A stretch of 62,151 nt of DNA, filler included, from Dugesia japonica (taxonomy: Eukaryota), in NCBI GenBank assembly GCA_001938525.1. It is 6 parts of 6 records of this genome, joined end to end, with 100 filler letters (N's around TTAATTAATTAA, not from the genome) between each part and the next. Parts side by side here need not be neighbours in the genome. Positions count along the whole stretch, not along the records: positions 53,043 to 62,151 come from MQRL01426270.1; 5 more parts are not named here. The stretch is one strand, 5' to 3'. This document shows positions 8,071 through 62,151 of this stretch, one piece after another; position 1 is the stretch's first letter; each line of letters begins with the position of its first letter. A model generated the notes under the pieces. That model worked only from the letters and a program-made list of their open reading frames with translations, did not search any database and had not been told where the DNA came from. The translations under genes were made by a program, and so were the position numbers.

Positions 8071-8084
8071 AAGAAAAATTACAA

Positions 8085-12080: not shown

Positions 12081-12118
<38 letters not shown>

Positions 12119-12496
12119 CAATAGTAATAATAATAAATAGTAATAATAATAAATTAATAATAATAATAAATCAATAATAATTACCNNNNNNNNNNNNNNN
12201 NNNNNNNNNNNNNNNNNNNNNNNNNNNNNNNNNNNNNNNNNNNNNNNNNNNNNNNNNNNNNNNNNNNNNNNNNNNNNNNNNNNNNNNNNNNNNNNNNNNN
12301 NNNNNNNNNNNNNNNNNNNNNNATAATAATTAAATAATAATAATAATAATAAATCAATACTAATAAATCAATACTAATAAATCAATAATAATTACCAATA
12401 ATAATAATCAATAATAATAACAATCAATAATAATAAATAAATAATAATCAATAATAATAATAATCAATAATATTAATAATATTAAATCAATAATAT
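12081..12496. repeat. (AAT)n microsatellite
   Basis: Long imperfect AAT array interrupted by N. Confidence 0.95.
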
Positions 12497-12599
12497 TTGT
12501 AGTCTGTAAATAATTGAGTAACAGCTGTTGTTTATATAAGTTTTGATATTTAATGATGATATTTAAGAGTTTAATTGTTCATTTCCAGAGGGTCCTGAT

Positions 12600-14300
12600 G
12601 TCAGATATGTTTTTGTATGTTGCAGCTGTAAAAATACAATATCAATTCTTCTACTCAGTTTGGCGGTTATAGTTTCAAGATTTGTAATGTGAGACATTCA
12701 TTAATACCGTTTTTGCATTATTTCTGATGGCTGTGAAAATAATTGTTATTAACTTGTTTTCTATGTAATTTTATTTTTGATTACCTAACTTAGTTGCCCA
12801 TATCAATATCTCTCTATTTACTATTAATGACGACCACGTGTACCTTTGAAATATTATTGTTCTTTTATTCGTTAGATGTATATATATGTATATGTATGTG
12901 TATGTGTATGTATCTATATTCAATAATACACCGACCAAGATAATATATCTGTCAAATCACAAATTCAAAGATAAACCAAATTTTATACATAAATTTATTG
13001 AAAATTAACCGCTGGAATTTCTAGGAAAAATAATATTTATTAACCTTCATAATGTTGTATACCGTTCATACCTGAAATGAAAATAAAGGAATGGCTGTAT
13101 AAAGTATAGAACGTAGCACATAATTTACATATTTTGCTCATCGTTTAATTTATCTTTTGTTGTCGTTTTTTCAACCACTAACAAAATAGTTTGCTTAGAT
13201 TTCAATAACTAGAACGTGATAATCATTGTAACCATAGTAAATGGAAGAGGGATGTACAGTTTGCGAATCTTGAATAATTTAATGATTAAGGATAAATATG
13301 ACTTGAGAAATATTATTGGGGTTATCCTTTTGCAGGATTGGTTAATAGCTTCATAAACCTTTACGTAGAACAAGTTTAATGTAATAAGTAAATAGTCTTT
13401 ACCATCCCAAATCTTGAAAACTTGTACTGCTATTGGGGCAGATTCAAACCATGTCGAATATATCGTCCGGTAAAATTCCGTGTGAGTAAAACATCAAGTG
13501 CAACATTTTTGAAGTATTTAATAACTGCCTCGTGTGAAAATCCACTCCAATATTTTGTTGAGTTATAACACAACAAAATATCTTAATAACATTGAAAAAT
13601 TAGGAATTGATGTGACATCAAGATCAAAGACGATTGCATTTAAACAAGTAATACAAGAATATGACGCAATCCTTGGAAAAATTAAATTGAAGTTAATCGA
13701 AAAAATTTCAATTAAATATGTTGAGGTCCAGGCTTCTGATGGTGTACTTGATACGTTTAATTTCTACAGTTATCTCTCATTTCCGTCTTTTCTTAATCTT
13801 TTGTTGTTAAGGCGTACATAGAACCCGCAAGTATTTATAACATCTCTTTGTTATGCTTCTCTTTACAGGATTTAGCGCGATTTTGCTGTATAACATCCGA
13901 ATGATTGGATTGATGTTTACTTACGCTCAGTAATTATTCTCGTTTTAGTTTAACGTAATTATTATACCGGCGCAACATAACGGTATAGAAACAATTTGAA
14001 TATTTACTGATTCAATATTTATTTACTTAGTTATACAACAATTTTACTCATTCTGTCGTCCTTCTACGCATCTAAATCCACCACTGCTTTTAGTCTCCTC
14101 TTTTTTCCCGATAGATAACTCGGCCATAGGATGCGAAGCGTGGGAATATTTGCAGCCTCTCTTGGCATATCCTAGGATGAGAACAGTCATCAGGCAATTG
14201 CCCTACTGTGAAGCCAATTTTCGTTCTTCATGTCTGATGCCCTGAGTTTCCGACTTTGTAACCATTTGATTAAGTTGAAGAATCCCCGTTTTTAAACCCC
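12600..14300 (-). mobile_element. Highly degenerate Penelope-like retroelement RT remnant
   Basis: Faint motifs only: LDVLLTRNFTGRYI (compare FLDV...RKPTFTGRY) near 13455-13505 and NIP.LR near 14135-14150. Confidence 0.3.
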
Positions 14301-14929: not shown

Positions 14930-16260
14930 TCCGTCAAAAATGTCTGACAGACTTAATAAGCATGATCAATGTTTTTGGTGATAAAGAACTAACATTATCC
15001 ATTCCAGGAATATTCACAATTGTTGATGTACGCAGACCAATTTTAGGATCCCATTTCCTGTCAATTTCAGGTTATTGGTAGATTGTCACAACAATCGTAT
15101 TCTTAGGATACAGAACAATATTATGAGCATATAAAATCAAACTTGTCTAAGAATCGAAACTTCCATAGCATCAGTAAAGAAGAGTTTACTGATCAGAAGA
15201 AATTGTCCTCAGTCAAAAAAATAATGACTTTGATGACATGCTCATTCCGGAAATATTTTTCAACCAAGTAACATCGGTGGTCTTAACCATTTGTAATTGT
15301 CAAAAATAAAGATGGAACTTTTCATCCATCACAACATCAGACCAATAATCATTACCCATAATAAACGACAGTTTGGAGAGAGTTTCAGGTTGTTTATTTT
15401 TTTTACTTTAGATCTTATTATCAAATCCCATCAATAAGGAGGATCGACATAAAGCGGGCTATGTTACCGATTCATGAAGAAGCATTTAAAAATGCTATAA
15501 AAACAACTTACTGAGATAGTTGATATGACAATACCAAACTACCCAAAAGCATTTGTTTTATGTATTGATGCATCTTGCACAATAATCAGTGGTAGTTCCA
15601 ACCACGAAAACAGTGTTAGTCAATTATGTTCTATATAATTTTTCTCAAGAAAGTTAAGGCCTGCAGAACGAAGATATTCAAAATTCGATATATACCTTCT
15701 GGAATTATATCTTTCAGTCGAGCATTTCAATCACTACTTACTTTGCAGCAAATTCTTTGTCTGAACAGATGATATCATACCAATGAAAAATCAATCTGCG
15801 CCACAGTGGAGATGGACAGAGCTTCTGAGTTAATTTGATATGCAAATTTAGTATATTAAAAGATCTGATAATATAGTAGCTGACTCTCTGTCTAGAAAAT
15901 ACACAGACCATGAAAGAAATTGAACACTCCAGACCTAGTCAAAAGCCAGAAAGACGAACAACATTCCAAAGATATACAAAGTTACTCTCTGAAACTGATA
16001 ATATCACTGGAAGGTTTTCTGATTGAAACCTCGAAGGCTAACACGAGAATTGTTCTGATTGAGTGTGTTACCCTTAATGAATTCTAAAGACTTCATAATC
16101 TGTGTCATTAAGGATTAAATGAAACAGTTATATTACTGACAAGTCGTTATGTTTGGCCAGGTAGAAAATCCAAAATTCGTAAATAGTGCAGATTTTGTCA
16201 GATATGTCAAGTCAATAAAATTACTTGGCATATGAAAAGAACCACAAAACAGGTAGAAAA
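14930..16260 (+). mobile_element. Degenerate Ty3/Gypsy pol (protease, RT, RNase H, integrase zinc finger)
   Basis: DVRRPILGSHFL; FVLCIDAS; FFSRKLRPAERRYSKFD; NIVADSLSR; LHNLCH...RYVWP...CQICQVNK; many stops. Confidence 0.8.
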
Positions 16261-19459: not shown

Positions 19460-22200
19460 CAACTTCTCTCCCTCTTTCTAGAATCTTCATCACTTTAACC
19501 ATTCGATTCTTAGAAATCTGTAACCTTGCGGAGTTTCTAACCTAATTTGATGAGATGTAAGAAATTCAGTACATTTATAAGGACCTTTATAGAGTAAATC
19601 ATTCTTCTTCTATTTTTTAGGGTCTTTCCTTACTAATAGGTCTTCACCTAATTCGAATTCGCGACTAAAACGGTTTTTCCTCAATTTATCATTGTCTGCG
19701 ATCCTCGTTTAATATTATCGTAAGCTTTGTTTTTAATTTTGTCCTCTCCAAAGTTGTGTTATTATTTGTGTGAATATTTATCTTCCTCCTATAAATGATT
19801 GCCATTGGTTAGAATCCAATTGACTTTGAGACAGTGCAATTAAATGCAAACTCTACTCTAGGAATAAGCTAATTCCAAAATTATTCCTCCACCCCAACTT
19901 TCATTAAAGTCGCTATCAGGTCTCCATATGTTCTTATTGCTCGTTCAGCTAATCCATTAGATTTATTTTCATATAGGGACGTAAAGACCTATGCAATATT
20001 AAGTTTACGAGCTAGACTTTGTAATAATTTCCCTTCAAATACTTTACCACGGTCTGTCACAATTTTCTGTGATTTTCCATAGAGTGCTTTTTACAGCGAT
20101 TTCATTTTGATTGCTTGTTGCAGTAAGACTAATCATTTTACTAAATTTATGCATGACAACAATCATATATCTTTTATTTGATCGACCAATATCCATATAT
20201 GCTATATCCATAATGATTTTTTCCATGGGATTACTAACTTCGCACGCAATAAATTTCTCTTGAACCTTCTCACTACTTATTTTCATGCATATGCAAAATT
20301 AACATTGTCATATTATATTTTGAATATCGTTTATCATATATGGCCAGAAGAAATAATCTGATAAATATTTTTTAGTTTTCTTCATTCCAACATGACATAC
20401 ATCTTTGTGTACTTTATTAACAAAGTCGTTTATTTCATTTAATGTTACTAAGATCTTGCAAACCCCATCACGTCCAATGATTATCAAATCATCTTCTACA
20501 AATAAATTATTCAAGTGTTTTCTGTAAATTGATTCATTTAGATCTTTAAGAATTTTTTTGTCTTCTCAAGAGAGGTATTTTTTCACATTAATAAACAATA
20601 CATTGCTCTTAAATCTGTTAATATAGCTATTCACATTGCCTAAAGAATCATCTAAAACATTCAAATATTTCTATTTAAACATCTTAATTTTAGCCTCTAC
20701 GTGTTCGGTTTGACATTGAGAACAATAACTTCAAAGAATACGAGACACACATTCTGTTGCTCACTTTTTCTTTATCTAAGCTCAAAATCATATTCTGCCA
20801 ATTTGATTATCTAGGTTTGAAATTGTGGCGTAATTTGTTTATGTGAACGCTTAATAAATTCTAATGCCTTGTGATCGGTTCGTGCTACAAAATATTTCCC
20901 ATATAAATAATGAATAAATAATGATATATTCATATAACACCAGCAACTCTTTACGTGTCACGCAATAACCCTTTTCATGAGCATTTAATAGTCTAGAGCT
21001 GTATGAAATTACCATTTCACGACCGTTTTGAATTTGGCTCAATACTGCACCGATTCTCTAAAGCTAGCATAAGTATCCAATATGAATTGGTTGCTTGAAT
21101 CCTGAAAACCTAATCTTAGTACAGTACGTAAATCTTGCTTCATTTCGTTAAAGCTTGTTTTACACTTTTTAGTCCATTGGATTTCTCATTTATGGCTTTC
21201 CGTTGCAGCGTATAATGGTTTTGCAAGTAACGAAAAATTCTTAACAAACTTCCTGTAATAGTTTGCCATGCCTGAAAAGGAACGTAATTACTTAGTTCAT
21301 TTTGGTATTTCTGATTTTGCAATTTCTAAGACTTTCTCAGTATTAGGCCCAAATCCATCTTTGCTAACTGTATGGTCCAAAAATAACAATTCACTTTGAA
21401 ATAGCTTACATCTATTTGGATAGATTTTGAAATCAGAATTCTGAATTCTTTAAAATATATTTTCAAGTAATTTATAATGTTCTGATCAACCTTTTGCAAA
21501 TACTAAAATGCCTTCAAGGTATACAACTACATCTTTAAATAAAATCCCATTCAATATTGTATGCATTATATCTGAAATGTAGCTGGAGTAGTTGATAACC
21601 AAAATTGCATACAATTGTAGCAATGTTTTGTTTTNTTTGTTGAAAATGCAGTTTTAATCTTATCTTATTCGTTTAACTCTACTTGAAAATAAGCTTGTCC
21701 CACATCCAAAATTGAAAATATCATACAACCACAAATGTGATCAAACAAAGTTTGCGGTTCTGGCATTGGGAATGAAAACTTCTTTGTAGAATCATTTAAC
21801 ATTCTAAAGTCTTCGCACATTCTGATTAAGCCATTTTTTTTACCAACAATTACGATTGGAAAGCTCCAAGCATTTTCGATAATATCACTGTCTGTCAGTT
21901 GCTCCATCAATTCATCAATCTTCTGTTCCAGATGTATTGGTTGACGTCGAAGTTGTTGAAGAATTGGATCACCAACTGTTGGAATGAAATGTTTTACAAC
22001 ATGTGTTTTCCAAGATCAAAAGTATCTGCCATAAAAATATTTGAAAACCTCAGAAGCATTTCTTTTAAATCATTATCCTCCGGTTTAAAGGCTTCTAATC
22101 TTGCTTTAATACGATTATTATCAGTGAATTTGCTGTTAATGTTCTCTAAAACCAATATATTAAGCATTTTTAATTGAATATAAAATACATTAAATATATC
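19460..22200 (-). mobile_element. Ty3/Gypsy pol remnant (RT, RNase H, integrase) with polypurine tract
   Basis: AWSFPIVIVGKKNGLIRMCEDFRMLN; LDVGQAYFQV; GAVLSQ...ISYSSRLL...TRKELL; TDHKAL; HKDVCHVG...FFWP; SNGLAERAIRT; GPY; PPT AGAAAGAGGGAGAGAAG near 19464-19480. Confidence 0.9.
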
Positions 22201-27019: not shown

Positions 27020-28251
27020 CATCTTTCAGTTCTTCAATAATCTTAAACCTTTTTCATATATTTGTGATATAACTGCTCTAATTGTATTAAAACTCGCATC
27101 TGTATCTAGTACAAACATCTTTTTGATATCTAGAAAACTCAATATCGGTGCTTTTGTTAATGCCTCTTTCATCTCATTAAAAGCTTTATCCCAGTTTTTA
27201 GACCTCACAAGTTTTGTATTATTACTTCCACATAGCTCTTCCAAGCTTCTACCTTTCTTTGAGTAATTATTGATAAACCGTCTATAATAATTGTATTTTT
27301 CTAAAAAGTTTCTCAAATTCTTCACAAATATAGGTCTTCCGAAATTTTTTATCGCTTCTATTTTTTGTGGATCGATTCGGACTCAATTTTTGTCTGTGAC
27401 ATGTCCTAAAAGTTTGACTTCTGCTCGTAATAAATGACAATTTTCTGGATTAATTCTCAATCCTGATTCTTGAACTCTTTTAAAACCTTGGTCTGAAATT
27501 CTATAATGCTGCTCTAAATTTTCTGAAAATATCAATATATCATCCATGAATACCATTGTTCCTCTAAATTTCCCTAATACTTTTGTCATTAATTCTTGAA
27601 ACGTTCCAGGTGCTGCAGCTATACTAAAAGGCATTCTTGTGAAACAATACTGTTCATTATTCGTAGAAAATGCTGTTTTTTCTTGTGAATCTTAATTTAA
27701 CGGAACTTGATAATATGCATTACTCAAATCTAACGTCTTTCCTCTCTTTTTTCCAAACACATATTAACGGAGTGTTCTATTGCGAATTAAACTTCCGAAT
27801 CATGCCATAGTCAAACAAATTCATGATAGCTTCATCGATCTTATTTTCTAAATGCATTGGTTGTCTCCATGGTTTCGTATTTATTGGTTCTCCATTTTTG
27901 ATTATTTGATGTTTTGCCATTGTTATTCTGCCGATATCCCAGTTGTCTGCCATTAAAATTCCTTTATAAATCTGTATAACGTTCTACAAATTCTCATTTG
28001 GTTTGTTAATCAATATTTTTATTGCTCTCTATACTCTCTCTTCATCTGTTGTACTTCGTCCATACTTTGCTTTTATATTACAAAGATATATTTCGTTGTC
28101 ATTACATTTAGTCTCTCTCAGAATTTGGAATCCAAACTGTTTCTGTAATTCTCTTTCTCTTATTAGATCTGAATTTAACTGGTTTGAATTTATTCTTGAA
28201 TTCCACTTCTACCTTTACCGTACCTACTATTCAAGTGTACTATGATTGGCA
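27020..28251 (-). mobile_element. Ty3/Gypsy element, 3' part (end of protease, RT, start of RNase H)
   Basis: ANHSTLE..GTVKVEVEF; DLSNAYYQVP; FTRMPFSIAAAPGTFQELM; VFMDDILIF; FVLDTDASFNTIRAVISQ. Confidence 0.9.
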
Positions 28252-29163: not shown

Positions 29164-29302
29164 ATACTTATAAATAAAATTACACCACCATATGTTGTTT
29201 ATACAAAAGAGAACAATGAAGAACTTCATGAATATTATGTTAAAAATTTATATATTGGAATCATCATAATAATTAGTTTTTGTTTTTATTTCAATAAAGA
29301 AA

Positions 29303-29704
29303 ATGGATACAACAAAATTAAATATTGATAATAATATTAATTTTCAACACTTTCCTCTCAAAAATGATGTTTTAAGAATTTCACCTTTATCTGGATCAAT
29401 TAATAATTTAATGTCTTCTGGAGATATAGTTTTTAAATCTTTACAGTCTTTAAATCCATTAGACATTTTTAATTCAATGTTATATTTTAAAGTTACATTA
29501 GAATTTGATGCAGCAGATGTAAATAAAGATAAAATAACTTTGGAAAATAATTGGTTTCTAAGTTTATTTAAATCAATGAGATTAACTTTAGGATCTTCAG
29601 ATGTGGAAATAATTAATGATCCTGGAATATCGTCAACAATGTTGAATTTAATAAGAACTAATGAAATTCATAAAAATATATACTGTCATTTGGTTTTTGA
29701 ATAA
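29303..29704 (+). pseudogene. N-terminal fragment of a Polinton/adintovirus major capsid protein (double jelly-roll)
   Basis: GDIVF...LDIFNSMLYFKV...LENNWFLSLFKSMRLTLGSSDVEIINDPGISSTM matches the family pattern NN...LF..IRYELNG.EI....GITST; truncated at 133 aa. Confidence 0.7.
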
Positions 29705-30452: not shown

Positions 30453-31900
30453 CATCTTAAATTGTCTTTTTTTTTATAATATATTGACTTTCCACAATCT
30501 TTCCAAAATTCTTAAACTCATCACATTAACTCTTGCTCTAGTGTCTAACAAGCAATCAACTTTTATGCCTTGTATTTCAACAGTTATACTTGGTCTACCT
30601 TACATCTAGTCATAACTTATCTCTTGTCGCTTTATCTCTTCTATCGTCAGAATTTCACTGTCATCTTCTCCATTTATATCATTGATCATCTCTGGTGGGC
30701 CTCTAATCAATTCTTTCTTTACAAACTTGTAAACGTTTTCTTTGACATCATTGTACTCATCTACTCTTTTATCTTTGTTTCTTATATTTATATCATTATT
30801 TATACTACTTTTACTGTAATTAACAATACAGAGATTTTATGGGATACTTAATTCAACTGGCAATCTCGATATAGCTTTGCCATTTGGGTAATCATCTTTA
30901 TAAATATTTGATCCTTCATAACAAAAGTGGCCTTTGTCTTCTCTACATACACAATCTTTTCTATTTTCCTCAATTAAATTAACATGACTTCCACTCTTTC
31001 TTGCGTAGTTTTTCGTTTTATTCGAATAATATCTTTGTTTGTTATTTCCGAATACTTTTCTGGTCTGTATACTTTTATTCTGATAACTAAACTGTCTGTT
31101 CATATTTGTGTAACAGTCCTCTGTGTGGTCACCTTTTTTGTTGCATCTTGAGCAACTAACTTTAGTAAAGTCTCTTCTTAGGTGTTGTTCAGATTCACAA
31201 ACAACTCTTTTCTTTCTTTCTTGACAATTTCTACTTACATTACCTATTTTGTTACAGGTCCAACACGTTATTTCTCGTCTTTCGTTGTTTCTGTTCTGTT
31301 GCATTCCTTAATTTCGACTCTTGCTGAAATTTGTTTGTTCTGGACTTCGGTGAACTGCATCTCTGTAATTACGAACTACACATATTTCTTCAGTTTTTAT
31401 ATTGTCTTTTATAATTTTCCCGCTCTTTTATTGTTTTAAATAAATCGTCTACTTTTTCTAGTTTTTCTGATTTGATTTTATTTTTAATCTTTCTGTCATT
31501 GCATTTATTCATTATTAGCTCTTTTCTTAAGTCCTATTTGTTCTATTTTTGAGCCATTAACATTTCTACTAATCCTTCAATCTTCTTGTTATAAATATTT
31601 ATATGCTCTTTATTCCTTCGATAATTTAGAGCTTCCTTCATATCTTTAATCATTTTTGATGGCCTAAAGAAAGCCTTTTTGAATCTTCTTTCAAATCCCA
31701 ATGATTCGTCTTTATTTTCATAGATTTCACGCAGATCTTTATTTATGAAAGCANNNNNNNNNNNNNNNNNNNNNNNNNNNNNNNNNNNNNNNNNNNNNNN
31801 NNNNNNNNNNNNNNNNNNNNNNNNNNNNNNNNNNNNNNNNNNNNNNNNNNNNCGTTGGTCGCCATATTAGTTAAATTCAAAATCTGACAACTCTCCATAA
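30453..31900 (-). mobile_element. Ty3/Gypsy element, 5' part (gag with zinc knuckles and start of protease)
   Basis: CWTCNKIGNVSRNC; CSRCNKKGDHTEDC; IKVDCLLDTRARVNVM; ends at ...DNLRC, which continues at 28251. Confidence 0.9.
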
Positions 31901-41113: not shown

Positions 41114-43090
41114 TTAAAATTNTTCTATTGGGAGTTCAAAGTTTCGATTTAAATCTTTATCTTGATCGAAAACCCATTGCATTTCTCCAGTTGGTAATAA
41201 TTCACACATTGCTGATGAATACAAAGAATTTGCATCATAATACATTAAATAGTTTTCTTTTAAATATGGTTTAAATAATGAATTTAATTTTGACGCTCGT
41301 AGTGGATCCTCACTTATTTTATTAAACATGTATTATTTTGATATATTCTTTTGTTTTATTTTATTAAAAAATTTATCATGAGCTGGTAATTTAGTTTCTT
41401 GCATAATTTCTTCTTTTTTATTAAATGAGTTTTATGTTCTTATATAAGCATATGGAAATATTCCTTTTAATGGTTTTAGATTATATTTATTTAAATGTAC
41501 ACATTCTTCTGGTTTAAAGTTTTTGCCGAAATCTTGTAATGAATTTGGCAATAATCTTAAAGAGTCTAAAATTCTAATACATCCAATTGGAAGTGAAATA
41601 TATTCTTCATCATTTTTACACAAAACATTTGCTCTTTTGTGTGCCCCTTTCGGGTTTTTAATTTCTTCTTTTTCAAAACGTTAAGTAAATATTAAATGTA
41701 AATCATTTTTACATCCATTATGAAAATACATTGGAACAAAATCAAATTTAGCTTTTAAGTTACAACTATTACAAGACAAACTCTAAAGTTTCCATTGAAA
41801 TGATCGTGATCTGCAACTTTATTTTCTGTTAGCTCTTTATTACAATAATAACAATTACATTTCTCGGGCTTATTTAAAATTTTTGAGATCGGAATATTTG
41901 TTTTTAATAATTGTTGAAATTCATTTTCTAAAGATAAAAACACATCAATAAACTTTTCTGCTGAATCTTCTCCATAATATTCAATATATTCTGATTTTTT
42001 TTAAATGCTCATAATAGCTTAAAATATAAATTCCAATCGATAAAGGTTTTTCTTCTAGGAGATGGGGCCCTTTGGGATCTCCATTTAAATTATTAAAACA
42101 TTNNNNNNNNNNNNNNNNNNNNNNNNNNNNNNNNNNNNNNNNNNNNNNNNNNAAATGTAACTTTATTTTTAAAATGATGTTTATTAAAATATAAATATTC
42201 ATCTTCAGGAAATATATTTATTGCTGTTTTATTATTTAAACATAATCTTTGGTTAGTATTTAAACAGTTCTTTGTTCTAAATCCAATTCTACAATTTAAA
42301 CATGGAAATGATTTATTTCTAGAACAATTTATAAATACACTTACAATGGAACAAAATATATAATGTTCTTTGAAAATAAATAAATTTGTATAATGGTTCG
42401 CTTCAAGATCTGTTGGTAGCCAATAATAATGATTTAGAATAATTGGTTTAATTTGTCTTGTTTCATTAATTTCAAATATGTTAACTTTAATATTTTCATT
42501 GTTTTTATTAAATTGTTTTACATAATTAATTGAAACTGGTAAATCTTCAACTGAATTCATTAGATTTTTAGTTTCTTTATAACTTTGATTAGTATATTTT
42601 AATGAATTAATTATTGAATGATAAAAACATTTATTGTTATTGTAATTTTCGTTAAATAATACTTTTGATTTAAATGGTAATTCTTTAAATGTTCAACCTA
42701 AAGGAGATGTATATTCGCCAAAAAAATTTCTATTGAATCTACATTTTGAATAATTAATCCAATTTCATATCCAATTTAATTTCAATGAAGTTATTAAACA
42801 AAACTTTTCATGAGTTAGCAATCCAAATTTTGATTTAAATACTTTGTTACATTTTAAACATTTAAATTCTTTTATTTCTTTTTCTTTATTTATTCCACAG
42901 AATTTTTTATGAGTGGTTAATCCATTTGGTTTTTAAAAAACTTTATTACATTTATCACATTTAAATTCATTAATAATATTTTCAATTTGAATTGATGGAA
43001 AACATTTTTTATTTTTTTTAATGTGTTGATTTAAATCATTTTGTTTTTTAAAATTTTATTGCATTTAGCACAAACAATTGTTGAAGACAT
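41114..43090 (-). pseudogene. Polinton protein-primed DNA polymerase B (N-terminus to motif A, internally deleted) preceded by three zinc fingers
   Basis: KCFYHSII; EHYIFC...FPCLNCRIGF...QRLC; CYYC...DHDHFNGNFR; YFHNG; RILDSLRLLPNSL; KGIFPYAY; YYDANSLYSSAM...LPTG; fingers CAKCNK, CDKCNKVF, CLKCNKVFKSKFGLLTHEKFC. Confidence 0.88.
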
Positions 43091-46685: not shown

Positions 46686-49600
46686 CATCCTGATGATTCA
46701 TTGAACAATACTTTGTCACAGTATCAGATCACAAATTCTACATTACAAAATGTGGAGTCAATAAATACGTTAAGCATGTCTCAACAATCTGTTCAGGTTC
46801 AACTACCAGGTATTGGGAATTTTTTGCTTCATATTCCTTCAAATTTCAAACCTGGTGAGCCAATAACTTTACCTTTAAATTTACCTCTAACTCCAGTTTC
46901 TCAACCATCTGGTGTTAATCCTATATCAATACATATGAATACTGGTCAACTAATGTCAAATCAGTTGCTTTCACTTTATAGTCCGTCCTCAAATATTAAT
47001 ATAACAGCTGGTAAAAAAATGAGAGCTATAGCTCCAAAACCTTCTAAACCAACATATCGCCAGCCGTTAATTGCTCCCAAAACGAGTAGTCCAAATACAT
47101 CAATTAACAATCAAGATAGCTTGAATAGTTCCACGCTTCCGGCCCCATCCGGTCCTGGCAGACGCAAAGGTAATAAAGGTAAAAAATCTGGTCGTAAGAG
47201 AGGTGCTCCAGCAAAATCCCATAAAAATTCCAGCTATGCTTCTTCAACGCATAGTATAGATAGTCAAGAGGCATGTCAGTATAATGAAAATAATTCACTG
47301 AAACAAAACTGCAATAATTCTTTGAATACCCGTAGTACATATCAATGCAATTATTATGTAAATAACGATTCATCAGATTATTTAAATCAGCCGCATGTTG
47401 CTATATCACATTCTTTTAACGAAATTAATTCAAATACTCTATTGGATAATTCTGATTCTGGCGAAAAAGATCTTCTTTCCTTGGCTTGGGAAATATCTAA
47501 TGCAGAGTTAAGTAATACTGATGATTTTACAACTGCGTACAATTTATATGATGCCAGCAACTTGGGTACAGATGGTTTTGTGTCAAGTGAAATTCTCGAC
47601 CAATTTTTACAAAATATTCAAAAGGATGATATTACAGAACTAACTAGGTGTTCCACAACCCAGATAAACATTGATTCCAGAGTATCTTATGCATCTTCTT
47701 TCACTACCTTACCCCCGTGTAGTACAGTTTTACCATCAGTAACAACTTCTACATATTTAAATAATTATTCAAATAATTCATCCAATATTGAAATGCCACA
47801 GTGCATTGAAATTGCTGAAGTTGTTAATCTCAATACTGAAGATATGTTGACTGAACTTGAAAAAGAAGAGAATGCTTTTCTTGATAAATTTGTCGCACAA
47901 TATAGTGGTAGTCATCAAAATGAACTTATAAGATGCGATTCTCAATCTGTGATTCCTGTTTCTTTACCGACAACTATTGAATGTCCTATAATTTCAAAAA
48001 TTAATGATAACATTCTTAAAGACATAGATTCAAATTGCCGATCTAATTTAATAATTGAAGATTCAGAGAAGGAAATAGATTTGAATATAAAAGAATCTAA
48101 CGAACTTTCGGAGATTGCCAAACAAATTGAAATATCATGTAGTTCTTCACAACAAGATTCCGAAGCAACACTTAAGTCTAAGATTTATAGTATGTGTGAA
48201 AGCTCGGATGGTCAAAGTAAAATAGATATTTTTTCTAAAGAAAATGATCATATTTCGGAAGCAAACTTTAGTAATAATACTAATAATACTATTAGCTTTT
48301 GTACTATTCCTAATACTTCTATAGAGCTTATTTATTCTTCTACAAATGATGCATTATTAGATGAAAAAACTCAATGCTTGATGTCAATAAATTTCGATTC
48401 AAAGCGTAACAACGAGTCATCATTCTACGTTACTGATTCTGCATTAAAGTCTAAAACATTAGATGATTTTGGTTTATTTGAGTTTTGCACAGATGGAGAA
48501 ATTTCTTTAAATATGAAAACCTTAAATCATGAATCAGCAAATACTATTATTGATGATGACAACAAATATATTGAACCACCTATTTTAGAAGATATATCAG
48601 ATGCTACACCTATACAATCAGATAATGAAAGTGAGGATGAAGATATCGATGAATATGCTTTTAAATTTTCAAGGTTTAATTATTTTAATAGTAGAATAAA
48701 TAAAATGAAAAAAATACAATTTGATCTCACTAAAAAATTGTACTTTAATGATTTTATAAAAAATACACCAAGTTTAAAACTTTTTCAAAAATATGACTTA
48801 ACTCAAAATCAGTCTAAAAATTGGTATATTGGTAATGACGAACTTAAAATACTCGATATATTTTCTAAAGTAAATTTAAGAAGCGAAGAACATGTTTTAA
48901 ATGACAATGTTTGTTGTGAAAGTAAGTCAATTGAGGATTTTCACAATTTGACAAAATCGTCGGAAGATGGTTCGATTTCTTTTAAAAATGTTGATGATGT
49001 AATTTGTAATACAAAATTAAATGATAAAACGGAAAATGATTTTAATATGTTAGTAGTGTTAGAAAGCAACATCGAAAATAATAATGAAAAAACAATTTTA
49101 ATTGGAAATCAAACAAATATGATTTGTACAAAAATGAATTGTGATATTACAAAAGATTTTGAAAACATGTCTACAAGTTTCATTGAAGATAATGTTAAAG
49201 ATAAAATCCAAAAGATTAGAACTGATGAGTTAGATGTTGATTATTGTCCCATAAATAAATCACAGAAATACAAAGTTAAAAATACAGTATGTAGTACATT
49301 AAAAAAACAGAAGAAAGGGAAAAAATCCGAAAAAGTAATTCATCCTCCTAAAGAATTTAAAATTAATAAAATTGAAAATATGTTTGATATTCCAAGAGAT
49401 AGGCAAAGGCGTCTTAGAAAACCTCCTAAAAAATTGGCCATTTATCAATCTATTAATTTTATTGAAAATAAATTTTCTATAGCTATTGATAAAAAAATGA
49501 ATTCTAAGCGAAAGGCTGAATTTTCAGAAAAGCAAAAGTTAAGTACAGATTTTAAGCGATGCACTCGTTCCAAAGGTTCTATATCTAAATCCTTTGACTC

Positions 49601-52202
49601 ATTTTATGAGGCAATTTCAAGACACAAAATTTCTTCGAATTCAAAAAGCAAAGTTCCACAAAAGAATATTTCTAACAAAGAAATTTCATTGAATTTAATT
49701 TCATTAAATTCTCATGAATTATCAGAAAAAAAATCAAGTGAAAATTTTATCGATATTAATATGATTAGTAATTCTAATTCTTGTACAGATATCGATCAAC
49801 TATCCAATCTACAGACTCAAATTGATAATTCAAATATTGTAACAAATGATGATATTGATGTTCGTCTTTCAAACATAAAAATACCTCCTTTCTCAAAAAC
49901 TATTCTAAATCAATTTAAATCTGATTATAAAAACTCAAACGTTATCAGAAAATACAATTTAAGAAAGAATAGCATTTCAATTAAGCGTGAAAATGAACAC
50001 TTTATAGAACACAACTCTTATGTGAAAATTCAAAGAAGTAAAAATAATTATGTCCAAAATATGTCAGAGATTAATAAAAAAGATACTTTAAAAAGTAATA
50101 GTAAACTTAATCAATTTAAGAGAATGAGGAAATTCAGAAAAACCAAACTCCTGCAATACAATATTAACAATGCTATGATAAAAAATAATGCAGATGAATA
50201 TGAAAACATAGATTTCCATTTAGCTTTCTTTGAAAATAAAGCTATAATTATTGAATCTGTGATAGAGAATTTTTTATATCCAACGGTTAACGTTAATGTC
50301 TGCCAGACTGCAAATTTTGTGGAAAATAAGCGTTACGCTTATAATCACACCTCAGAGTTTATTAATAAAAAGTTTTATCCAGTTCGAAAAATTAATAAAA
50401 AACTGAGAATTTACAGTGGCTTAGAATCAAACGTGAAAAACGACAATATAAAATATGCATCTTTGATAGATATGAGTCTAAACGATTTTCCTTGTAGATT
50501 TCAATGTTGCAGTCAATTTGCAAAAGTTATAAAACCTAGCAATATATTGATTAATACTTCGATGTATAATCAGTTTATTCCAGATTCTTATAGTGCCACT
50601 ATTGAAATTCAGAGTTTTAATAATACTGATGAACCGATTTCAGATACAGATGATATTGAAAGTTTAGATGCTCCGTTAGTTATCGTTGAAATAGATGAAA
50701 TTTCTGATCACAGCAGTCATATAAAAAGGAAAGAATATGATAATTTAATTGATAGTAACTTAAGCGAAAATAAAAATTTATCAAATATGTCGAATCAATC
50801 AAAAAATTTTGAGAAACCAATTGTAAAGAAACAAAATGAAGTATCAGATTTTCAAAAAACATATTCCTTAAGAACCAAATGCCGACAAAAAACTAATTTT
50901 GTAAAACGGAAAGAAAAAATAAAAAGACCATTATTTAATCGATTGTGCAAAAAATCAGAAATACATCATGATATTAATTTAGAGAATGATAATGATCTTA
51001 TAAATAATATTAAATTAAAAACGCCAATTTGTTCTATTGAAAAACTATCCCATAATGATATAATTGCTAATTTAAGTGTATCGTCTAATTCAGTTAACAG
51101 TGATATGATTAATAACAAAGAGGAAATTGATTCAAATTTAGAAAATTCATTCAGAAATAATTTTAAGACCTCTGCGATTGATGTTATAAATTCAATTAAT
51201 TTAAAAGAAATTGAAAGAAATGTTTTTAAAAAATTAAAAGGGTCTATTTTGAAGAAGATTAAAACTAAAGTTAATGTTTACAAAATTATAAAAAAATCTT
51301 TATGGAGAAAAAGTGTTCACAGAATTTTCAAGAATAAATTAAAATCTAAATCTAAAATTATTTTGAATTGTTATAGAAATTATTCTGGCAAATTAGATAA
51401 AAATGTCAAATTATTAAAAGATAGTATTACGCATCTAGTTTTACAATCTAAAGATTACAATGAAAATCTTGATAATGATGATAATGAATCCATTAATGTT
51501 GAAAATGATTCTCCAAATCATGAATTTAACACGTATTTAGATTCGAATAACGTTGAAACTTTTTCTAGGAATTATGGTTCATTTTCATTAAAAATTAAAG
51601 TTCAAAAAAAAGATCCTGATCAATTAGAAGAATCAACGAATATTAAAAAACATAAAAAAAATTCGAAAAAGCGTAAGAAACTGAGGCATTTTCTTAGTAG
51701 TATAATTGGATCTGATGATATAACTTATAAAATGAATTCTTCTGAAGAATATGAAAAACTAGCTGAACTTAATAATGAAATAAAACGCAAAAATAGAAAA
51801 AGGAAATACTCTTTAAATCATGATACAGTTTGTTCTGATGTTTATAATACTAATCAAGATTTAAGAAATTATTTAAATCAAGAAATATCTCATTTAACCT
51901 CAGAATCTCGATCTAATGATGATTCTCAATATCAGAAACCGATTAAAATTAAACTTTTTAAATCAACTAATGAAGACTTGTCAAAGTTAGAAGGTAGTTC
52001 TTTTCATTCTGAAAAAATTGTTTTCTCTCTTCAAAAATCTGATGATAACAATAAAAATGAATTTGGAAAAACTGCTAATCAAAAAATTTTGCAAATAATT
52101 CAAAATATGCCTTCTAAACCATGTAGACAAGCAGCTAATTTAGCAAAAAAGAAAATCTTTTCTACTGCTAAAGAAGATCGACGGAGTCAAAATGCTACCT
52201 TG
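46686..52202 (+). CDS. Host gene exon 3: 5.5-kb exon encoding an Asn/Ser/Lys-rich low-complexity region; the gene probably continues past the contig
   Basis: Uninterrupted 1841-aa frame; TTTAG acceptor in phase 0 and TTG|GTAAGC donor at 52203; repeated IAPK motifs and basic NLS-like clusters; no domain recognised. Confidence 0.9.
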
Positions 52203-52675
52203 GTAAGCTTTATTAAAATAATTTAATTCGCTTTTAAAGTTTTCTATCACACTTACTTAATTTGAAATGGTATTGCTTAAAAGAATTTAATTTTATATAA
52301 TTACAAATAATTGGAAAAGTTTAATTTATTTTTAAACTTTTATTAGCTGGTAAAGGAAAATTTTATACATATGCTTTAAATATCGCTAGGTATTTAAAGA
52401 AATTGCTTTACTTATAAATACCTATTTTTAGGAAAATAATCCGAATACTTTTCAATATCAAAACGATTAATTTCACACATTTTATTTGGTTGTTTGGAAA
52501 GTAATTTCGCTTTTTGTGTCCATGTTTTATTCTTAATTTAAAGCACCAAAGACAGTTTGAACTTATTAAATTAAAAATTAAAAAATACTCATTACAACAA
52601 TTTACAAATCTATTTTGATTTAAAGGTAAATTTGTTTTAATATATCAAATTATTTTTAGGTGGGATATTTGACAA

Positions 52676-52942: not shown

Positions 52943-53042
52943 NNNNNNNNNNNNNNNNNNNNNNNNNNNNNNNNNNNNNNNNNNNNTTAATTAATTAANN
53001 NNNNNNNNNNNNNNNNNNNNNNNNNNNNNNNNNNNNNNNNNN
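52943..53042. other. Artificial contig linker
   Basis: Same N44-TTAATTAATTAA-N44 spacer. Confidence 0.95.
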
Positions 53043-53083
53043 TTGATGATCTGTCTTGAGATTCTGCATGTTATGTTTATTTT

Positions 53084-55100
53084 ATGTGTTATGTGTGGTT
53101 TATAAACTCAACAAATCAAAAAAGAAATTTAGCAGAACAAGAACGAGTGCTAATAAAAGATTATATAGACGAAATGGGAATGGAATCTAACAGCACCACA
53201 AGAACGAATACGAGTACAAACGGCATACAATCAATGTTAATGATATTAATGATAATGCTCTTAATTGACCGAGGTGCAGCGATAAAAGCATATGATTCCG
53301 ACAAGATGGATATTGGAGAAACAGTGTACTCACTATTGGACGTGGACGAATGTACAGAAGCGAATACAGAGAAATTAGAACCAGTTCGAAAGGCAATACC
53401 ATATTTTGTTTATCAGGAATCAGATTATTACAGGACAAAGGTGAGAGAATGTAGAGTTAAAATGACAGCTTTTGTGTATTATTGCGAAACGAGAAGTTAT
53501 ACAGCAATCATTGAAACTGGGAAAGAGGTAAGGCAAATTTATCTAACAGGAGAACAATGCGAAGAAGAATTCGTAACCGGGAAGATACGTTAATAGTTAA
53601 CGCAAAAATCGGACAGATTATACAAACTAGAATCTTTGCAGCAGGAAGTATCTCGGACAAACATGGAACATGTACTCGGGGTATCTATACCGTAAAAGCA
53701 GTAGTCACCAGTTATGTAGTAGCCATAAAAAGCCATCGAGTAGAATTAAAAGAATATGACGCATTCTTCGATACTAAAAGACAAATGATGAAAATGTATA
53801 CAATGTGCAAAGCATCAGATCTTTCATGCGATACGGGGATGTCAACTTTATATAACGTTAATCATCAAGAATGTGCAATGACATTTCTCATAGAAACAGC
53901 CTTCGACGAATATCACGGGGAAAAGGTAGAAAAAGATAAAGTGGACAAGATGCCAGATGTAGGGCATGTAGATGAAGCTAAGCTGCCAAAAACAAGCGAA
54001 ACTCGCTGGGTAGACACACCAGTAGTATTAATGTCAACCGACAAAAACGATATTATTAGATTAATATGAAAGAAAACAAGGTCGAAATGTGGGGAACTGG
54101 TATATGAAAGAAATTATAAAGGCATATGGGTGTCAAAAACTAGATTTGGAAAAGCTAAAGCAGGAATTATACCAGCAGATACGAAGTTGCATCTATATAT
54201 TAATGACAAAGTTGACTATTTGTTTCATCAATGGAGAAAATGTACCATGATCTTGTTTGGAACAATTATATGTTAAATAAAGAAATACTAAGGACAAGAT
54301 TGGCGACAGCAATAACGAATTTAGGTAATGTATCACCATTATTACCAATAGAAGAAGGAAAATTTGGACGAGTTGTGGGAGAGGTTATGTTCATATACCG
54401 ATGCAAAAAAGTAGACGCAGCGCTGATCCCGAAAGGAAAGAAATCCTAGAATGAAATGAAAATTTTACATTAACAAGAAAGAAGATTTGTGGAGCCCATC
54501 ACCAGAATAATATTGCTGAAGGGATTCATTCCGAATGTGATAAACTGTTCAAACCTATTTGGACCTTATTTTAAACTACCAAATAATAAATGGGTGCGAT
54601 TTCCAAAAAGACTCCCAGTGACTGAGGTCAAGAATTTTTCACGATTACAGCTAAAAAGTGGAGCAAAATTTACACCCTTAAATGTAGCCTAAGGTGGAAT
54701 TGACCAGCAAGAAGACTTAGATAGAGCAAGAAAACATATGTTATTTCATTTAAAGAGGATGCAAATTCTATCGAATCTTATAAATAGCCGGAGAAGGATT
54801 CACATCAAACGGCAAACCGAACTATGAATGAGTATTATCACAAGATCACTTTCAGATGGCAACAGTAAATTTGATGAAGAAAATGTGGGGTCGATTTATA
54901 GTTTTTGGACAAACAATGGCAGGATTTTTATGAATAATATTCATAGTACAAATAGTAGTAATACAACTACTAGCGTGTTTCGATTAATATAAGAAAGAAA
55001 GAAAGTTATCTTGGTCAATGATGATGGGATAGTTTCTGGCTTGGGCAAAATCAGTAGTATTAAGTAGTCATTCAAACGATCTGCATGACACATGGAGATT
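53084..55100 (+). pseudogene. Chuvirus-like envelope glycoprotein, frameshifted; probably the env of an LTR element or an endogenous viral element
   Basis: Signal-like LMILMIMLLI; AYD...SLLDVDEC...ECRVK...VYYC; YINDKVDYL; GRVVGEVMFIYRCKKV; EPITRII...CSNLFGPYF; GGI..QEDLDRARKHMLF; WGRFIVFGQTMAGFL transmembrane region; motif order is collinear with chuviral G. Confidence 0.8.
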
Positions 55101-55416
55101 ACTGCGATATGGAGATCTAGTATTAGTAAATACACCGACAATCGATATTGGCAAAACAGACAAATTAAAGAGACTAAACAAAGGACCTTACTTGGTATTG
55201 GAAACAACGGCAACAAATTTAATGTTAAAAGAGTTGTGAAACCATTAAAGAAACCTAGCATTGTTCATGTATCTAGGTGTAGCAGCCAATGAAACCAAAA
55301 TAAACAAAAAAAACGACATAGAAGTGGAATCCAAAACGAATAAAGTAAAATGAGTTCGATTTAAAATGGATAAACTAAAGGAACAGGAAAGATATCTAAT
55401 TAGATCAAGAGATTAA

Positions 55417-57050
55417 GTGATGATGATAAAAACGAAGTCAATAGATGCAAGTATAGTTAGTATAACTAATAAGAACACAGTGAAAATTTCGCGTGAAAAA
55501 GATGAGCAGTGTCATGATAAATTAAAATTAGAAGTTCCGTGTAAAGATAATAAGTGTTATAAAATATGCAAAGAAACACGTCTAGAAACAGTACCAATAA
55601 TAAAGAATCAATTGCTAAAGATGTGTTATCAATGTTTAAGAACGACACAGATAAAATCGCACGTGTGGATAGAGAATTTAATCGAGTATCATTGCAAGTG
55701 TGAAGAGAAAAAACCGATATTGAAAGATCAGCATGTAAACAATGTATGGAAGTGGTAATAAAATTAAACATGTCCAAGGAGAAATATAGACAATGGTGTA
55801 TTAATTGTATAACAAATGCGAGACAAATAATGAGTAGTGAAATTAGATGTGTCTTCAATAATTTAACAGGCTTATCAGCAGCAAAACCACTAAGAGTAAA
55901 TATTGAACTAATAACTGAAGAGATTATGAGAAAATTTCAGCTAAATAATGATCTAACTAAAATTGAAAATAGACGAGATATACTTAATAAATATTATCAT
56001 TCAGTGGAAATCGGATTAATTCAAGAGAATCGAATATGCGACTATCTAAGATCTGGATGATATAGAACGAAAAGACACGGATTGGCAGATAACTGGAAAA
56101 CATTGTGTAAACCGCGTTTTACGAATATCACAGAGAATTATAATGAGACAGCAAGAAAGATGGACATTTAATAAATCAAATCGAATCGAAATTGAGCGAA
56201 GCAAGGAAGCCCATTCCCCATGGAACTTAGAAGGAAATTGTAAAAACTTCAGACCTACGAAATGTCCAATTGACGTGACAAAAACAAAGAAATTATAAGG
56301 AAGCTGTCAAATTAATCTACGTAAAGAGATTCAGACATCATGAGTCAAAATAGAACAAAAGAAATGGAAACTAACGGAAAACCAGACTCAAAGTGAAATT
56401 AGATACAATTATTATAATAGAAATCGAATAGAAACCAAGATCGTAATATCTGAAAACAAGTTGAAAGAGATATGTCTAAAATGTATAATTATAATGGGAC
56501 TACAATTGAAAGAAGCTAAAGAGAAAATATGGGATATTATAGATATGAATCAAGAACAGTCAGAAGCTAAGAAGTGTAATTGATGTGTATCAAAAAACCG
56601 ACTAAATGTCCAATTGTAGCGGAAAACTTAGAGAATTTATATAATAAATGTTTCCAAAAGAGAGAAATCGAGTTGAAAGACACACTAATTATAATAGCAC
56701 GAAAGAGACGTTGGTTGATGAACCATCCGGTACCAGATAATCAAGGACACCTCAGATGTAAATCAGAAGATAAAGTGAATTACCAATACCAAATACCATG
56801 TTCAAGAAATTATGTTTATGTTACGAGAACGATTGCGTGTGAGTCGTCGGAGAGAACTCACACTCATCGCGAACAACCGAATGTTTGTCGAGATAATCAA
56901 ATATTATGCAGATCGANAAGCATCCGTCCTCGCCAACGTAAAGACATTGTGAAAGGAATATGAGATGAAGAACAAAAGTGACNATGAATGTGTGATTACC
57001 GAGGAAACAATCTTCAGGTCCCCATGAATTATATCAAAATAAATGTGTAA
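55417..57050 (+). pseudogene. Fragmented Cys-rich ORFs of unknown function downstream of the glycoprotein
   Basis: Same-strand, purine-rich ORFs 55417-55758, 55746-56060 and 56580-56963 with CxxC motifs. Confidence 0.45.
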
Positions 57051-58289
57051 TTATTATCGGATTCTCTTCATTGTTTAAGGAATAAATAGAATCAAATTAA
57101 TAAGATCAATAACAACTAAGACTTTCTTAAAGACAGGATACCGCATAGTCCCGCATAGACTCGGAGTGGATAGAGCAACACAAGGAGTGTTGCCAAATTT
57201 CTGCCGACTCCATGTTATCTGCCCCTAGAAGATAATGAAATAAAAAGAATGCCAAGAAAGAAGTACCAAGAGTTACAAGAGAAGTTATAAAACATCAAAA
57301 CCTCGGAGCTCAACATAATTATTATTTTTATTATTAATATTATTATCAAAACTAAAACCTAATAAGTAATATCGGTTTATGTATGTATACATGTATGAAT
57401 TTGATTGGGTAATAAAAGTAAAACATGTATATAATCTGATTGGTTAATTCTTTATTTTCATCATCTGATTATGCTTCTTTTTTTTTGTTTGCTACTTGGT
57501 TCCCTGCGTACACCTTAGCAACCCTGCTTGCTTTTTGGTTTTCATGGTTTTAGTTTTCTTTTACATACCTAATTATCAGCTACATTGTTAGAAAATAAGA
57601 GTTTAACATAGAAAATTCTTGATTCATCATTAAAACTACTTGATCTCAACATTTAAAATTTAGGTTTAATGGGAAACATATGTTTAATGGCAAATATGGG
57701 TTTTATCATTGAATATAAAACAATTAAACCATATATATTCAATAAACCAATTGTTGTAACTAGATATCACTAGGATATATTAATATTTCCAACACTTAGA
57801 CCAATACAGGGACAAGTAAGTAATACCTATTCAATTATTTCTTATCTAAATTGGGTTTCACTTCATTCTTAGTAAGTTTTTTAAAATAACCTGAAATTTT
57901 ATAGTAGTTGATAAAGATTTTATGAAATTACATAGTAGTTGATAGAAATCATTTGAAATTGCATAGTAGTCACAAACTATTTTATGAATTTTTATAGAAG
58001 TATCAAAACATTTTATTAATTTGTATAGACTTATGCAAGATAAATGTACAATATGGTGTATTACATACATAGTATGAATCCATTACATGTACAGTATGAC
58101 TGCAATACAAATGCAAGATTAGCGCAATATTAATACTACTCATGTGGCATTATAGCATCATTTAAGGAAAGGAATACATGAAAAATAATGGTTTCATAAC
58201 AAGTTTCATGACCCACTGATTCTTTCATTTAGTTACTTAGTAAAACATATTGATTTCAAATGCTAATATTCTCGAGTAGAGTATTTAAA

Positions 58290-58450
58290 CATGTACAACG
58301 CTCACTATCAACATCTATATCAAGACAATTCTCGCTATCAACAGCTCTTATCATACACAATACCCACTATCATCAATTATTAACATATACAATTTTCACT
58401 ATCATCAAGTATTAACATACACAATACTCATTATCATCATTTACATATTG
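58290..58450. repeat. ~28-bp minisatellite
   Basis: Units resembling CATACACAATACTCACTATCAACA. Confidence 0.7.
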
Positions 58451-61400
58451 ATCATTCAGTTAATGGCTTAATATTTTCATCAATTATCCCATATAGTCAG
58501 GTCTAAACTTAACCTTTAATCTATACTTTACAACCAATGAACACAAATAACCTGTCAATTATACACATCTTTTCACTTAATATAGAAATTTTCTTTAAAA
58601 ATAGACCCTCTAATTAATTTATTTACCCATTAATTATCTAATTTTAACATAAATTTATTCAATCATTAAAATTCTAACCAATTATTCATATTATCAACCT
58701 TTCAAATTAATTAATTAAATCCTGAAATTAAAATTTTATTCAATCAAAGTAAAATAATTAATTCAAACTTNNNNNNNNNNNNNNNNNNNNNNNNNNNNNN
58801 NNNNACAATCAGGGAAGAGTGAAGATCAGCAAAAAGTAGATTAAAACCATTGATGACTGAATACTAGTGTATAGTGCATTGAGTATTGATGATTGAAATG
58901 CAGTGCACAATGATCATAGCTTTGATAACTGAGAACCAGTGAGGTGTGAAAAAAGATCCATAAAGGATAAATTATCATATAAAGAAGTCGAAACGAGAAA
59001 AAACTAGACCTGATTGGATATAAATTTACCATTTATTTTAAACGTGGAATGAACACACTGGTGTTGTTTTAATTCTAAAAAAATGGAGATAGTAAATAAA
59101 AAACAGGATGAGCTCGCACGGCGTACAGAGGACATCTTTGTCAACAAAATAAATTTTCTTATACAATATAGCGAATTTGTCTGCTCGACTCAAAATAGAG
59201 AGCTGATTCCTTTGGAACAGCAAGAATGATGAGGCCGCATTTGACTTCTCAAACGATGAGCCAACCCATAAGCTTAACCTTGAGGCTATTAATTTTATGT
59301 AAATAAATGTTTTTAAATTATATGTTTTGTCTCCGTCAATTTAAATATAGAGTGGGGAAATCTTGAACACGAATGAAAGGTGTACGAGTATGCACTCCAA
59401 ATAAGCGTTGGAAGTCAACGACTCTGCACTGAAAGCCTAAATCAGGGACTTTAGGTTAAATTATTCGCATGGTCCACTGAGNGCTGTCTTTTTCCTCAGC
59501 CATCATTTTTCCTTTTGTCACCCACTCAGGTGGAACCCCAACAGTATTATAATTAGTAGAAAATATGTAAAATATTATTAGAAAGAATATTATTATTTAT
59601 TTTTTTGGGACAAAACAAATCAAACTTTTGATGCAAATCACACCCAAAATAATAATCAAAAGTATAAAACCACCGAAGTAGTGAAAGTAAAAAAATCGCA
59701 ATGTAAATTACAAGCAATCAGGAAAACAAAGAAAAAAATCTGCAAAAATTATTATCGATTTATATCAAAAGGGAGATCAATTGAGAGGAAAACATAATAT
59801 TTCCCAGAAATTAATTGTAAATTCTAAACAGTACAATTGATTCGAAAGTAATTCAAACAATATTTGAAATATTGAAGAAAATATTAATGAAATAATTGAA
59901 TTTGTAGAAAAACAGAAATAATTTAGAATAAATGAAGTCAAATTATTATAATTTGACTGGAATTTAAAATTAATTTAACCAACAGAAAAATAAAATTACG
60001 CTAAAATAAGTATAAATACCCCAGGAAAAACTAGAAAAAAATCTCTATCTCCGTGAAAATTCGAGATCGATCTTCAATTTACCTAAGCGAAGAATAGAAA
60101 TCTTTCTACTAAAAAAATCAGAAATTGATCTAAGTCGCAAAGACGAAACCATTACCAACATTAATTGGTCACTCAAAACAATCATTACTGCAGAAAATCC
60201 CTAAGAGAACTTTCAAAAAATCAAATAATTCTCATGGTCAAGTTAAAGTAAAAATAGGTCAAATTAACCTTTCCAAAAAATCAAATCGCTATCATCTTAA
60301 AGTAATCGAAATATATCAGTCAAATTATCTATTCCGTCATTAGAAAATTACAAATTCGTGTAAAAAACAGCAGTCAATTCTCCAAAAACAAAAATTCCCG
60401 ATTCAACTGAGAGAATGGTATTTATTATAGATTCTCCCTCGGTATTATCTACTAGTTATTTCAGTGCCAGAAAATCAGTAGCTTCATACAAGAATCTTGT
60501 GCAATTTGTTAATATTCCTTCGCAGTAAATCCGCAATTAAATTAACAGAGAAAACCAGTTATCAGTTTGTGTGTCAAATAACTTCAATATTCTCTCACAG
60601 AAAATTTGTGTATAAATTATTAATTCGTATGTTTAAATCCTCAGAAAAATTACTATATTTCTTCACCCAATTTATATCAGAATAATTCTCTTACATTGTT
60701 TTTTTCTACTAATTCATTTGCAGGAACAGAGAAAGGAATGAAGAAAGCTTATCGATAGATTTCCAATTGGAATTATTGTAACATTTACTCGTGGAGAAAA
60801 TTCTACAATTTTAAAAGTTCATGTGCAAAAACCAGTTATAAATTTCTACCCAAAGTGAATTTCTTTCACTTTTTTTATTCAGTAAAATTTTTCAATCGAC
60901 AATTCAATTCCCATTTCAACGAGTGGATAAAATAATCTGCGATATTTGCGGTAAAAATCTGTCTAAAAAAGTCAATTCCTGACGAAGACAATGTCGAAAT
61001 ATAGAATTATTATGAAAAACCAAAAAAACTAATTTTTATCGAAGCTTTTATTTTAATGAAATAATAATAAAAATAATAATAATACCTATAAAAATAATAA
61101 AAAAAACTTTTTGGACATTGGAAATTCTTGGGTAATTATTTTTTTTATTTTTAATACAATAAAAGCCTTTAGAATTCAATAGTTTATAAATATTACTAAA
61201 TAATAATTTTTAATGTAATACTGTATGAATCAATTTCAAAAATTAAAGTAAATCTAAAAGAATTTATTTATTGAATTTCTGTAAATAACATTTATCTGAT
61301 TTGTATTCTACTATCCGGGATCTGATTTTCCTTCTCAGTATTCTTGGCATTTTTTTCAAGTCAGTGTGATGTATTATTAATCTTTGAATTAAAATACATT

Positions 61401-62151
61401 TAATCCTGTTATGTGATATTTTAGGTGTGCAAATACTTCTATTATTGAAGCAAGAAACTCTCCGCGACTTGATAGAACAAAGCTCGTCATTCTACATATA
61501 AAATTTACTAATTTAATTTATTCCAAAAATGCAATAATTATGTAAAATTTTCCAATTATAGTAAGCCTGGCCAACTCAGCTCTGCATGTGTATTCAGAAC
61601 CTTAGTTACTTTTCACGTTTACCACGCTTTCTAGGCAATTTTTAAATTTTTATCCGCTAAAAAAATTTGACGCAGTGAAAATTAGAAAAATAAAAATACT
61701 TGTACAAATAAATCTGTCAAAAATGTGATTTAAATTACACATCAAATTATTATAATGTAAACCATATTTTGGCACTGATTTAGTATTATTTATTTTTAGT
61801 ATGTATGGAGAAATACAACAATTAAAAAAATAGTAATAAATAATACTTGTCGTTAGGCAAATGCTGGTCTGTGTTAGTGTGTTTAGACGAGCATTGCGCT
61901 TAAATTTTATTCAGATCCAAATATAAATAATTAAAAACTGTTATATATATTCAAAATCTACCTTTTTAAAGTTTTTTAAGTTATTACTTTTATTTAAAAT
62001 TATTCAATTTAAAATGCGTTCAAGACTTTCATTTTTTATATTTCAATTTTTTGTCACTTATTTTTTGAAAAAAAGTCAAACAAATTTATGTAGAAAAGTC
62101 AATTCACATTTATGACAATTTGTCTCTCATTCTTGTTTCTTAAAATACATT

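Follow-up and report, generated by a model that had tools for sequence, protein, structure and literature searches.

The DNA analysed here (the window) is a 62,151-nt stretch of the Dugesia japonica assembly GCA_001938525.1, made up of six short contigs (G+C 25–32% per contig) joined by five N-spacers, each of two runs of 44 N residues around a 12-base linker. The remains of an envelope (env) gene lie at the start of the last contig (53043–62151), directly after the spacer at 52943..53042; this contig begins approximately 180 bases ahead of the signal peptide of the gene, and the long ORF that precedes 53043 belongs to another contig, not that of env. The plus-strand frame that is open from 53060 contains an internal signal-peptide-like hydrophobic stretch (53225..53293), recognized by hydropathy and positioned as in intact polyproteins, and the broken env, which occupies 53225..55110 on the same strand, includes a transmembrane segment at 54889..54993 (hydropathy peak 2.75) that is interrupted by stops. 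When the contig was compared with Pfam, three collinear segments in three frames matched PF24664 (Monjiviricetes_fusion), at 53060–53590 (E 6.6e-14, model positions 5–120 of 653), at 54231–54824 (E 2.1e-18, model 326–515) and at the start of 54787–55755 (E 2.1e-5, model 517–575), two of the three passing the curated cut-off and the last falling under it. The segment 53584–54273 had no Pfam match and aligns with intact relatives at 26–38% over approximately 215 aa; its predicted model (mean pLDDT 74) gave 13 BFVD matches at E≤0.001 in Foldseek, with chu-like G on top (best E 3.7e-9), and a weak likeness to rabies G and HCMV gB domains in VIA-align (Z 2.6–2.9, all Z values being under 3). The fold of one intact relative, P0019, matched herpes gB in the PDB at E 1e-12 and chuvirus G at E 1e-38, and in tblastn the window env matched intact env–pol proteins at E values of about 1e-73 to 1e-87. 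Region 53225..55110 is thus a real fossil of a chuvirus-type class III (gB-like) glycoprotein, and the preliminary description of this DNA, which had proposed from the sequence a nearly full-length, frameshifted glycoprotein of the chuviral G type running from signal peptide to transmembrane helix, was borne out both by the collinear PF24664 matches with the hydropathy peaks and by the structural search. The gene carries three frameshifts (near 53590, 54230 and 54785) and eight in-frame stops, 11 breaks in total, and has kept 11 of the 14 cysteines common to 13 relatives while losing the other three. The env gene of this copy is dead, and neither env nor pol can be made from it.

Relatives of the glycoprotein were sought by searching the N-terminal env piece against 1.84 billion representative sequences, which yielded 60 matches, and 17 of these, picked by length or rank, were scanned for domains. 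Env was followed by reverse transcriptase (RT), RNase H and integrase in four of the 17 and by protease in three more, and an L polymerase was found in none. The same env-to-pol order is present in P0064, L001 and L002, in single frames of 3426–4844 aa; indeed, the closest intact relatives, at 30–36% identity, are env–protease–RT–RNase H–integrase polyproteins. Gypsy-type Pfam domains were present among the scanned relatives and BEL/Pao-specific families, which we take to be Peptidase_A17, DUF1759 and DUF5641, were absent. In an alignment of 13 rows the window env is 30–36% identical to eight retroelement-type envs, 22–28% to three more distant ones and 20–23% to two stand-alone G proteins. 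The one virus in our comparison, L005, has an L polymerase, a G and a third ORF; its G is 26% identical to the window over 173 aa, whereas L001 and L002 are 34–36% identical to the window over the same segment. A quick tree of 25 rows placed the window in a group of 21 rows that holds all the env–pol rows, with L005 and three others apart (SH-aLRT 99). Since this tree came from a quick search, with long branches that meet and only one true virus, and lacked a set of named chuviruses or BEL/Pao elements, it is to be taken as support and not as proof. By these comparisons, the env is a retroelement env, clearly closer to retroelement envs than to viral G. A Bcl-2-like domain precedes env in eight relatives that were chosen for this motif, and a profile of the eight matches many Bcl-2/Bcl-xL chains at an E value of about 1e-3. 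A BLASTP alignment of the window to relative L003 reaches over 53111..53179 (plus strand), a possible remnant of the end of such a domain, and the trace is non-significant both by the profile of the eight relatives and by a pairwise test of 53111..53179 alone. Word-indexed searches were weak, with four unnamed matches for P0019, five unnamed matches for alignment A1 and none among 415 candidates when P0001 was compared with longer proteins, and P0019 had no match among viral contigs. Several relatives have further features of their own. In L001 (approximately 9000–12104) and L002 (approximately 10100–13470) the integrase is followed by an extension that by eye resembles a membrane protein, having a signal-like stretch and, towards its end, a hydrophobic helix. 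An exonuclease ORF of its own also follows the integrase (L001, Pfam RNase_T, E 1.4e-5; by eye, L002 has a comparable one). The env–pol polyprotein P0064 (4844 aa) contains several aspartyl-protease-like repeats, ankyrin repeats and a C2H2 finger, and the env–pol polyprotein P0025 bears the NCBI label of a Flavobacteriaceae hypothetical protein, being probably animal DNA that was binned into a bacterial genome.

Directly behind env lies a remnant of pol. A profile built from six relatives, with which the whole window was searched in all six frames, matched 55105–55248 (iE 3.4e-12), with a second, weak piece of the integrase tail following in order at 55218–55286 (iE 0.52); in this region identity to L001 is 57% over 44 aa, the Pfam label there being MLVIN_C, under the cut-off. 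We therefore annotate 55111..55286 on the plus strand as a Ty3/gypsy integrase C-terminal module (GPY-type, SH3-like) with one frameshift near 55240. It starts at 55111 and shares the frame of the env tail, so that env stands upstream of pol and both are on one strand; at the join (55110..55111) there is no protease, RT, RNase H or integrase core. The two parts are zero bases apart here, compared with 3.5–7.4 kb between env and the integrase C-terminal module in five relatives. The gypsy protease–RT–RNase H–integrase core, present in the nearest relatives, is absent from this copy, no match to the pol core having been found on the contig at E≤1. The direct succession of env and integrase tail, the spacing in the relatives and the lack of a pol-core match together indicate an order of env to pol from which the pol core is missing. 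The preliminary description had placed pol upstream, off the contig, and had left the carrier unnamed; the pol remnant is instead directly downstream, and the integrase tail and env–pol relatives identify the carrier as Ty3/gypsy. Extension of the sequence upstream of 53043 to find pol, which had been suggested, was rejected because pol lies downstream in this group. Gag, RT and the 5′ LTR are absent from the contig, and typing of this element by its RT is therefore impossible.

How the join at 55110..55111 came about bears on the anatomy of the locus and not on the identity of the gene. It may be a deletion within one copy or a misassembly in which two copies of a repeat of the same family were fused, and we regard the latter as a serious contender, if somewhat short of an even chance. 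Among the matches listed, contigs of the DNA sequencing runs X3 and X5 have loose ends behind 55110 and there leave the window, as expected if other copies run on into pol, and the sequence that follows env in those copies was not found elsewhere in the window. Furthermore, one X5 contig of single-locus depth matches 55111–55350 with two differences and has 86 other letters before 55111, so that the join is either a misassembly or a deletion absent from that sample; a fusion of this kind is likely where contigs are short and contain N runs and where a repeat is present in high copy. Against misassembly, order and strand at the join are as expected after an internal deletion, there may be a contig that bridges it beyond the matches listed, and X3 and X5 need not derive from the assembled individual. 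Were the join real and present in many copies, the locus would represent a pol-less, non-autonomous derivative of an uncatalogued high-copy family, which we consider improbable; such a derivative would retain env along with a new accessory gene rich in cysteine, would be mobilized in trans and would supply envelope to its autonomous partner.

The integrase tail is followed on the plus strand by a decayed cysteine-rich accessory coding region with a probable right element end near 57316 (55291..57316), recognized by its CxxC count, by depth and by purine fraction. It has four CxxC motifs on the plus strand compared with a mean of 0.6 in shuffled sequences (four were reached in one of 1000 shuffles), and the purine fraction drops from 0.61 to 0.51 past 57316. 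No match to 55291–57316 was found among 70 fetched proteins or five loci, nor a convincing one in Pfam or the Atlas, and it is the sole part of the element without a known relative. The ESM Atlas gave nothing usable for the ORF at 55417–55755 or for the domain that precedes env in L003, and convincing Pfam families were likewise absent from the plus frames of 55237–62151 and the minus frames of 53043–62151. A purine tract of at least 14 bases of the kind that would mark the start of an LTR was not present in 55250–57600. In two public DNA runs, 899 and 898 contigs aligned to 53043–56916, most of them 85–95% alike, and single contigs had a depth of about 1350–1480 compared with 8–13 in locus-like contigs, some exceeding locus depth more than 100 times. 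The element thus belongs to a dispersed, multi-copy family, and the depth, which is a rough guide and not a copy count, suggests that the family has about a hundred members, or more. The stretch 55643–56916 is as deep as env (the alignment reaches only to 56916), and the cysteine-rich region therefore belongs to the element. In RNA run X11, of which a quarter was read, 22 reads aligned and none was at least 95% alike.

The remaining contigs of the window, and the far part of this one, contain further features. Decayed Ty3/gypsy pol fragments are present at 4463–4777 (minus), 15522–15914 (plus), 20092–22045 (minus) and 27062–28013 (minus), with 29–38% identity to the pol of L001/L002 at RT/RNase H segments, and are too distant to be assigned to the env. 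An open frame of 1846 aa at 46686–52226 (plus) on the neighbouring contig is rich in Asn, Lys and Ser, has no convincing Pfam match and is probably a long host exon. Convincing Pfam matches were also absent from 30837–31307 (minus), 29273–29704 (plus) and 42093–42692 (minus), among which there are, by eye, presumably a gag zinc-knuckle fragment and two Polinton-like fragments. Degenerate tandem units of 42 bases (7464–8104 and 11653–11980) and 32 bases (58325–58443) were also observed, the two arrays of the first family being in inverted orientation about 3.7 kb apart.

Three other origins of the glycoprotein fossil were weighed against that of a gypsy-type retroelement. The mRNA of a Jingchuvirales glycoprotein could have been copied directly into the genome and by chance have landed beside a gypsy fragment, and both the Pfam family and the top Foldseek matches, which are chu-like virus G, would be congruent with this; however, retroelement envs are clearly nearer than viral G, the integrase tail follows in the order of the intact relatives, the copy number is high and no L match was present in the contig frames scanned (Pfam would not catch N), so that this origin is largely refuted and we hold it to be very improbable. 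Elements of the BEL/Pao superfamily are known to carry a chuvirus-derived G, the mosquito element Anakin among them (PMC7642597), and an env of that kind would resemble the present one. Yet the remnant that adjoins the window env is a gypsy-type integrase tail, and the domains of the relatives are likewise of gypsy type, none belonging to the BEL/Pao-specific families named above, which makes a BEL/Pao origin extremely improbable. Finally, the retention of a near-full-length env with loss of pol is what might be seen if the host had domesticated the env as a fusogen or restriction factor. The three frameshifts, the eight stops and the loss of three of 14 conserved cysteines exclude domestication of this copy unless most of the breaks are assembly errors, and the lack of closely matching reads in the part of X11 that was read also argues against it; its probability is next to nil.

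We conclude that the locus is, very probably, a copy, now decayed, of a Ty3/gypsy LTR retroelement of the Burro type with gag–env–pol order; to judge from env similarity and base composition, the host is most likely a planarian. Intact relatives encode one long polyprotein that runs from gag and a Bcl-2-like domain through an internal signal peptide, a class III ectodomain and a transmembrane anchor to protease, RT, RNase H and integrase. Our working hypothesis for such an element, which draws on what is generally known of signal peptides and of class III fusogens, is that the internal signal would thread the ectodomain into the ER, that signal peptidase together with the protease of the element would free a trimeric protein of predicted fusion activity, and that this fusogen, if displayed on particles, could allow their passage between cells. 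The copy itself would have arisen by retrotransposition within a high-copy family and then decayed; as a genomic fossil it is of an ordinary sort and does not represent a new capture from a virus. The preliminary description had left the choice between an enveloped retroelement lineage and an independent env capture, of which the retroelement env stands and the new capture does not, the kind having been published in planarians. As the gag–env–pol layout with a gB-type env is already published for planarians in two reports (PMC6431247, PMC13524379), the lineage is a catalogued one, and the novelty that had been envisaged for a host without catalogued elements of this sort falls away. What the locus would add is one more family of planarian gag–env–pol elements, together with the practical lesson that a fossil of chuvirus-like G in an AT-rich animal genome is to be taken for a retroelement env, with pol sought downstream. 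Whether such envs yield infectious particles outside insects, a question of interest to the field, is beyond the reach of a dead copy.

Comparison with known systems places the window env in the same protein family and fold as Jingchuvirales G (PF24664), although it reaches only 26% over the best segment to one viral G, has no L nearby and differs in type, being one domain of a retroelement polyprotein. PMC7642597 and PMC10084718 deal with the BEL/Pao and Jingchuvirales cases known from arthropods; Anakin likewise has a chuvirus-like G inside an LTR retroelement, but belongs to another retroelement superfamily and another host, the remnant in the window being of gypsy type. Errantiviruses of Nematoda, Bryozoa and Platyhelminthes are reported to have gB-type env only and GAG-ENV-POL order, and include nine listed flatworm elements, six of them from Schmidtea mediterranea, with 1–215 intact copies per element (PMC13524379). 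The latter, Smed_1–6 (Chary and Hayashi), are Ty3/gypsy elements of GAG-ENV-POL order with an HSV/gB-type env of the C1a group (PMC13524379), and resemble the window in env type, in the position of env before pol and in the multi-copy state, whereas the present copy is broken and without pol core. Over window positions 53390–53581, 24–27 of 64 residues (38–42%) are identical to Smed_1, 2, 4, 5 and 6 by hand count, Smed_3 having been left out because of an indel, and no such likeness was apparent by eye for 18 nematode envs (PMC13524379). We place the window env in none of the six Smed families, because 38–42% is within the range between families (31–64% in 12 pairs). Smed_5/6 were considered as nearest to the window and rejected, the hand counts being about equal for the five families. 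Burro/GYPSM1 are giant gypsy-like elements of Dugesiidae for which a review describes an env that lies between a BCL2-like domain and protease and is in one frame with them, matches of that env to mononegavirus-type fusion glycoproteins, accessory ORFs, and decayed copies with stops and frameshifts in Dugesia japonica itself (PMC6431247); Burro1 is reported to be repressed by SMEDWI-2 (PMC8532177). The likeness of the window env to Burro is one of described layout. Burro elements exceed 20 kb and have long LTRs, whereas the present element is truncated by the contig end, its size, LTRs and gag-side domains being off this contig. Since it belongs to none of the six published Schmidtea families, the element may represent an unlisted family or a Burro.
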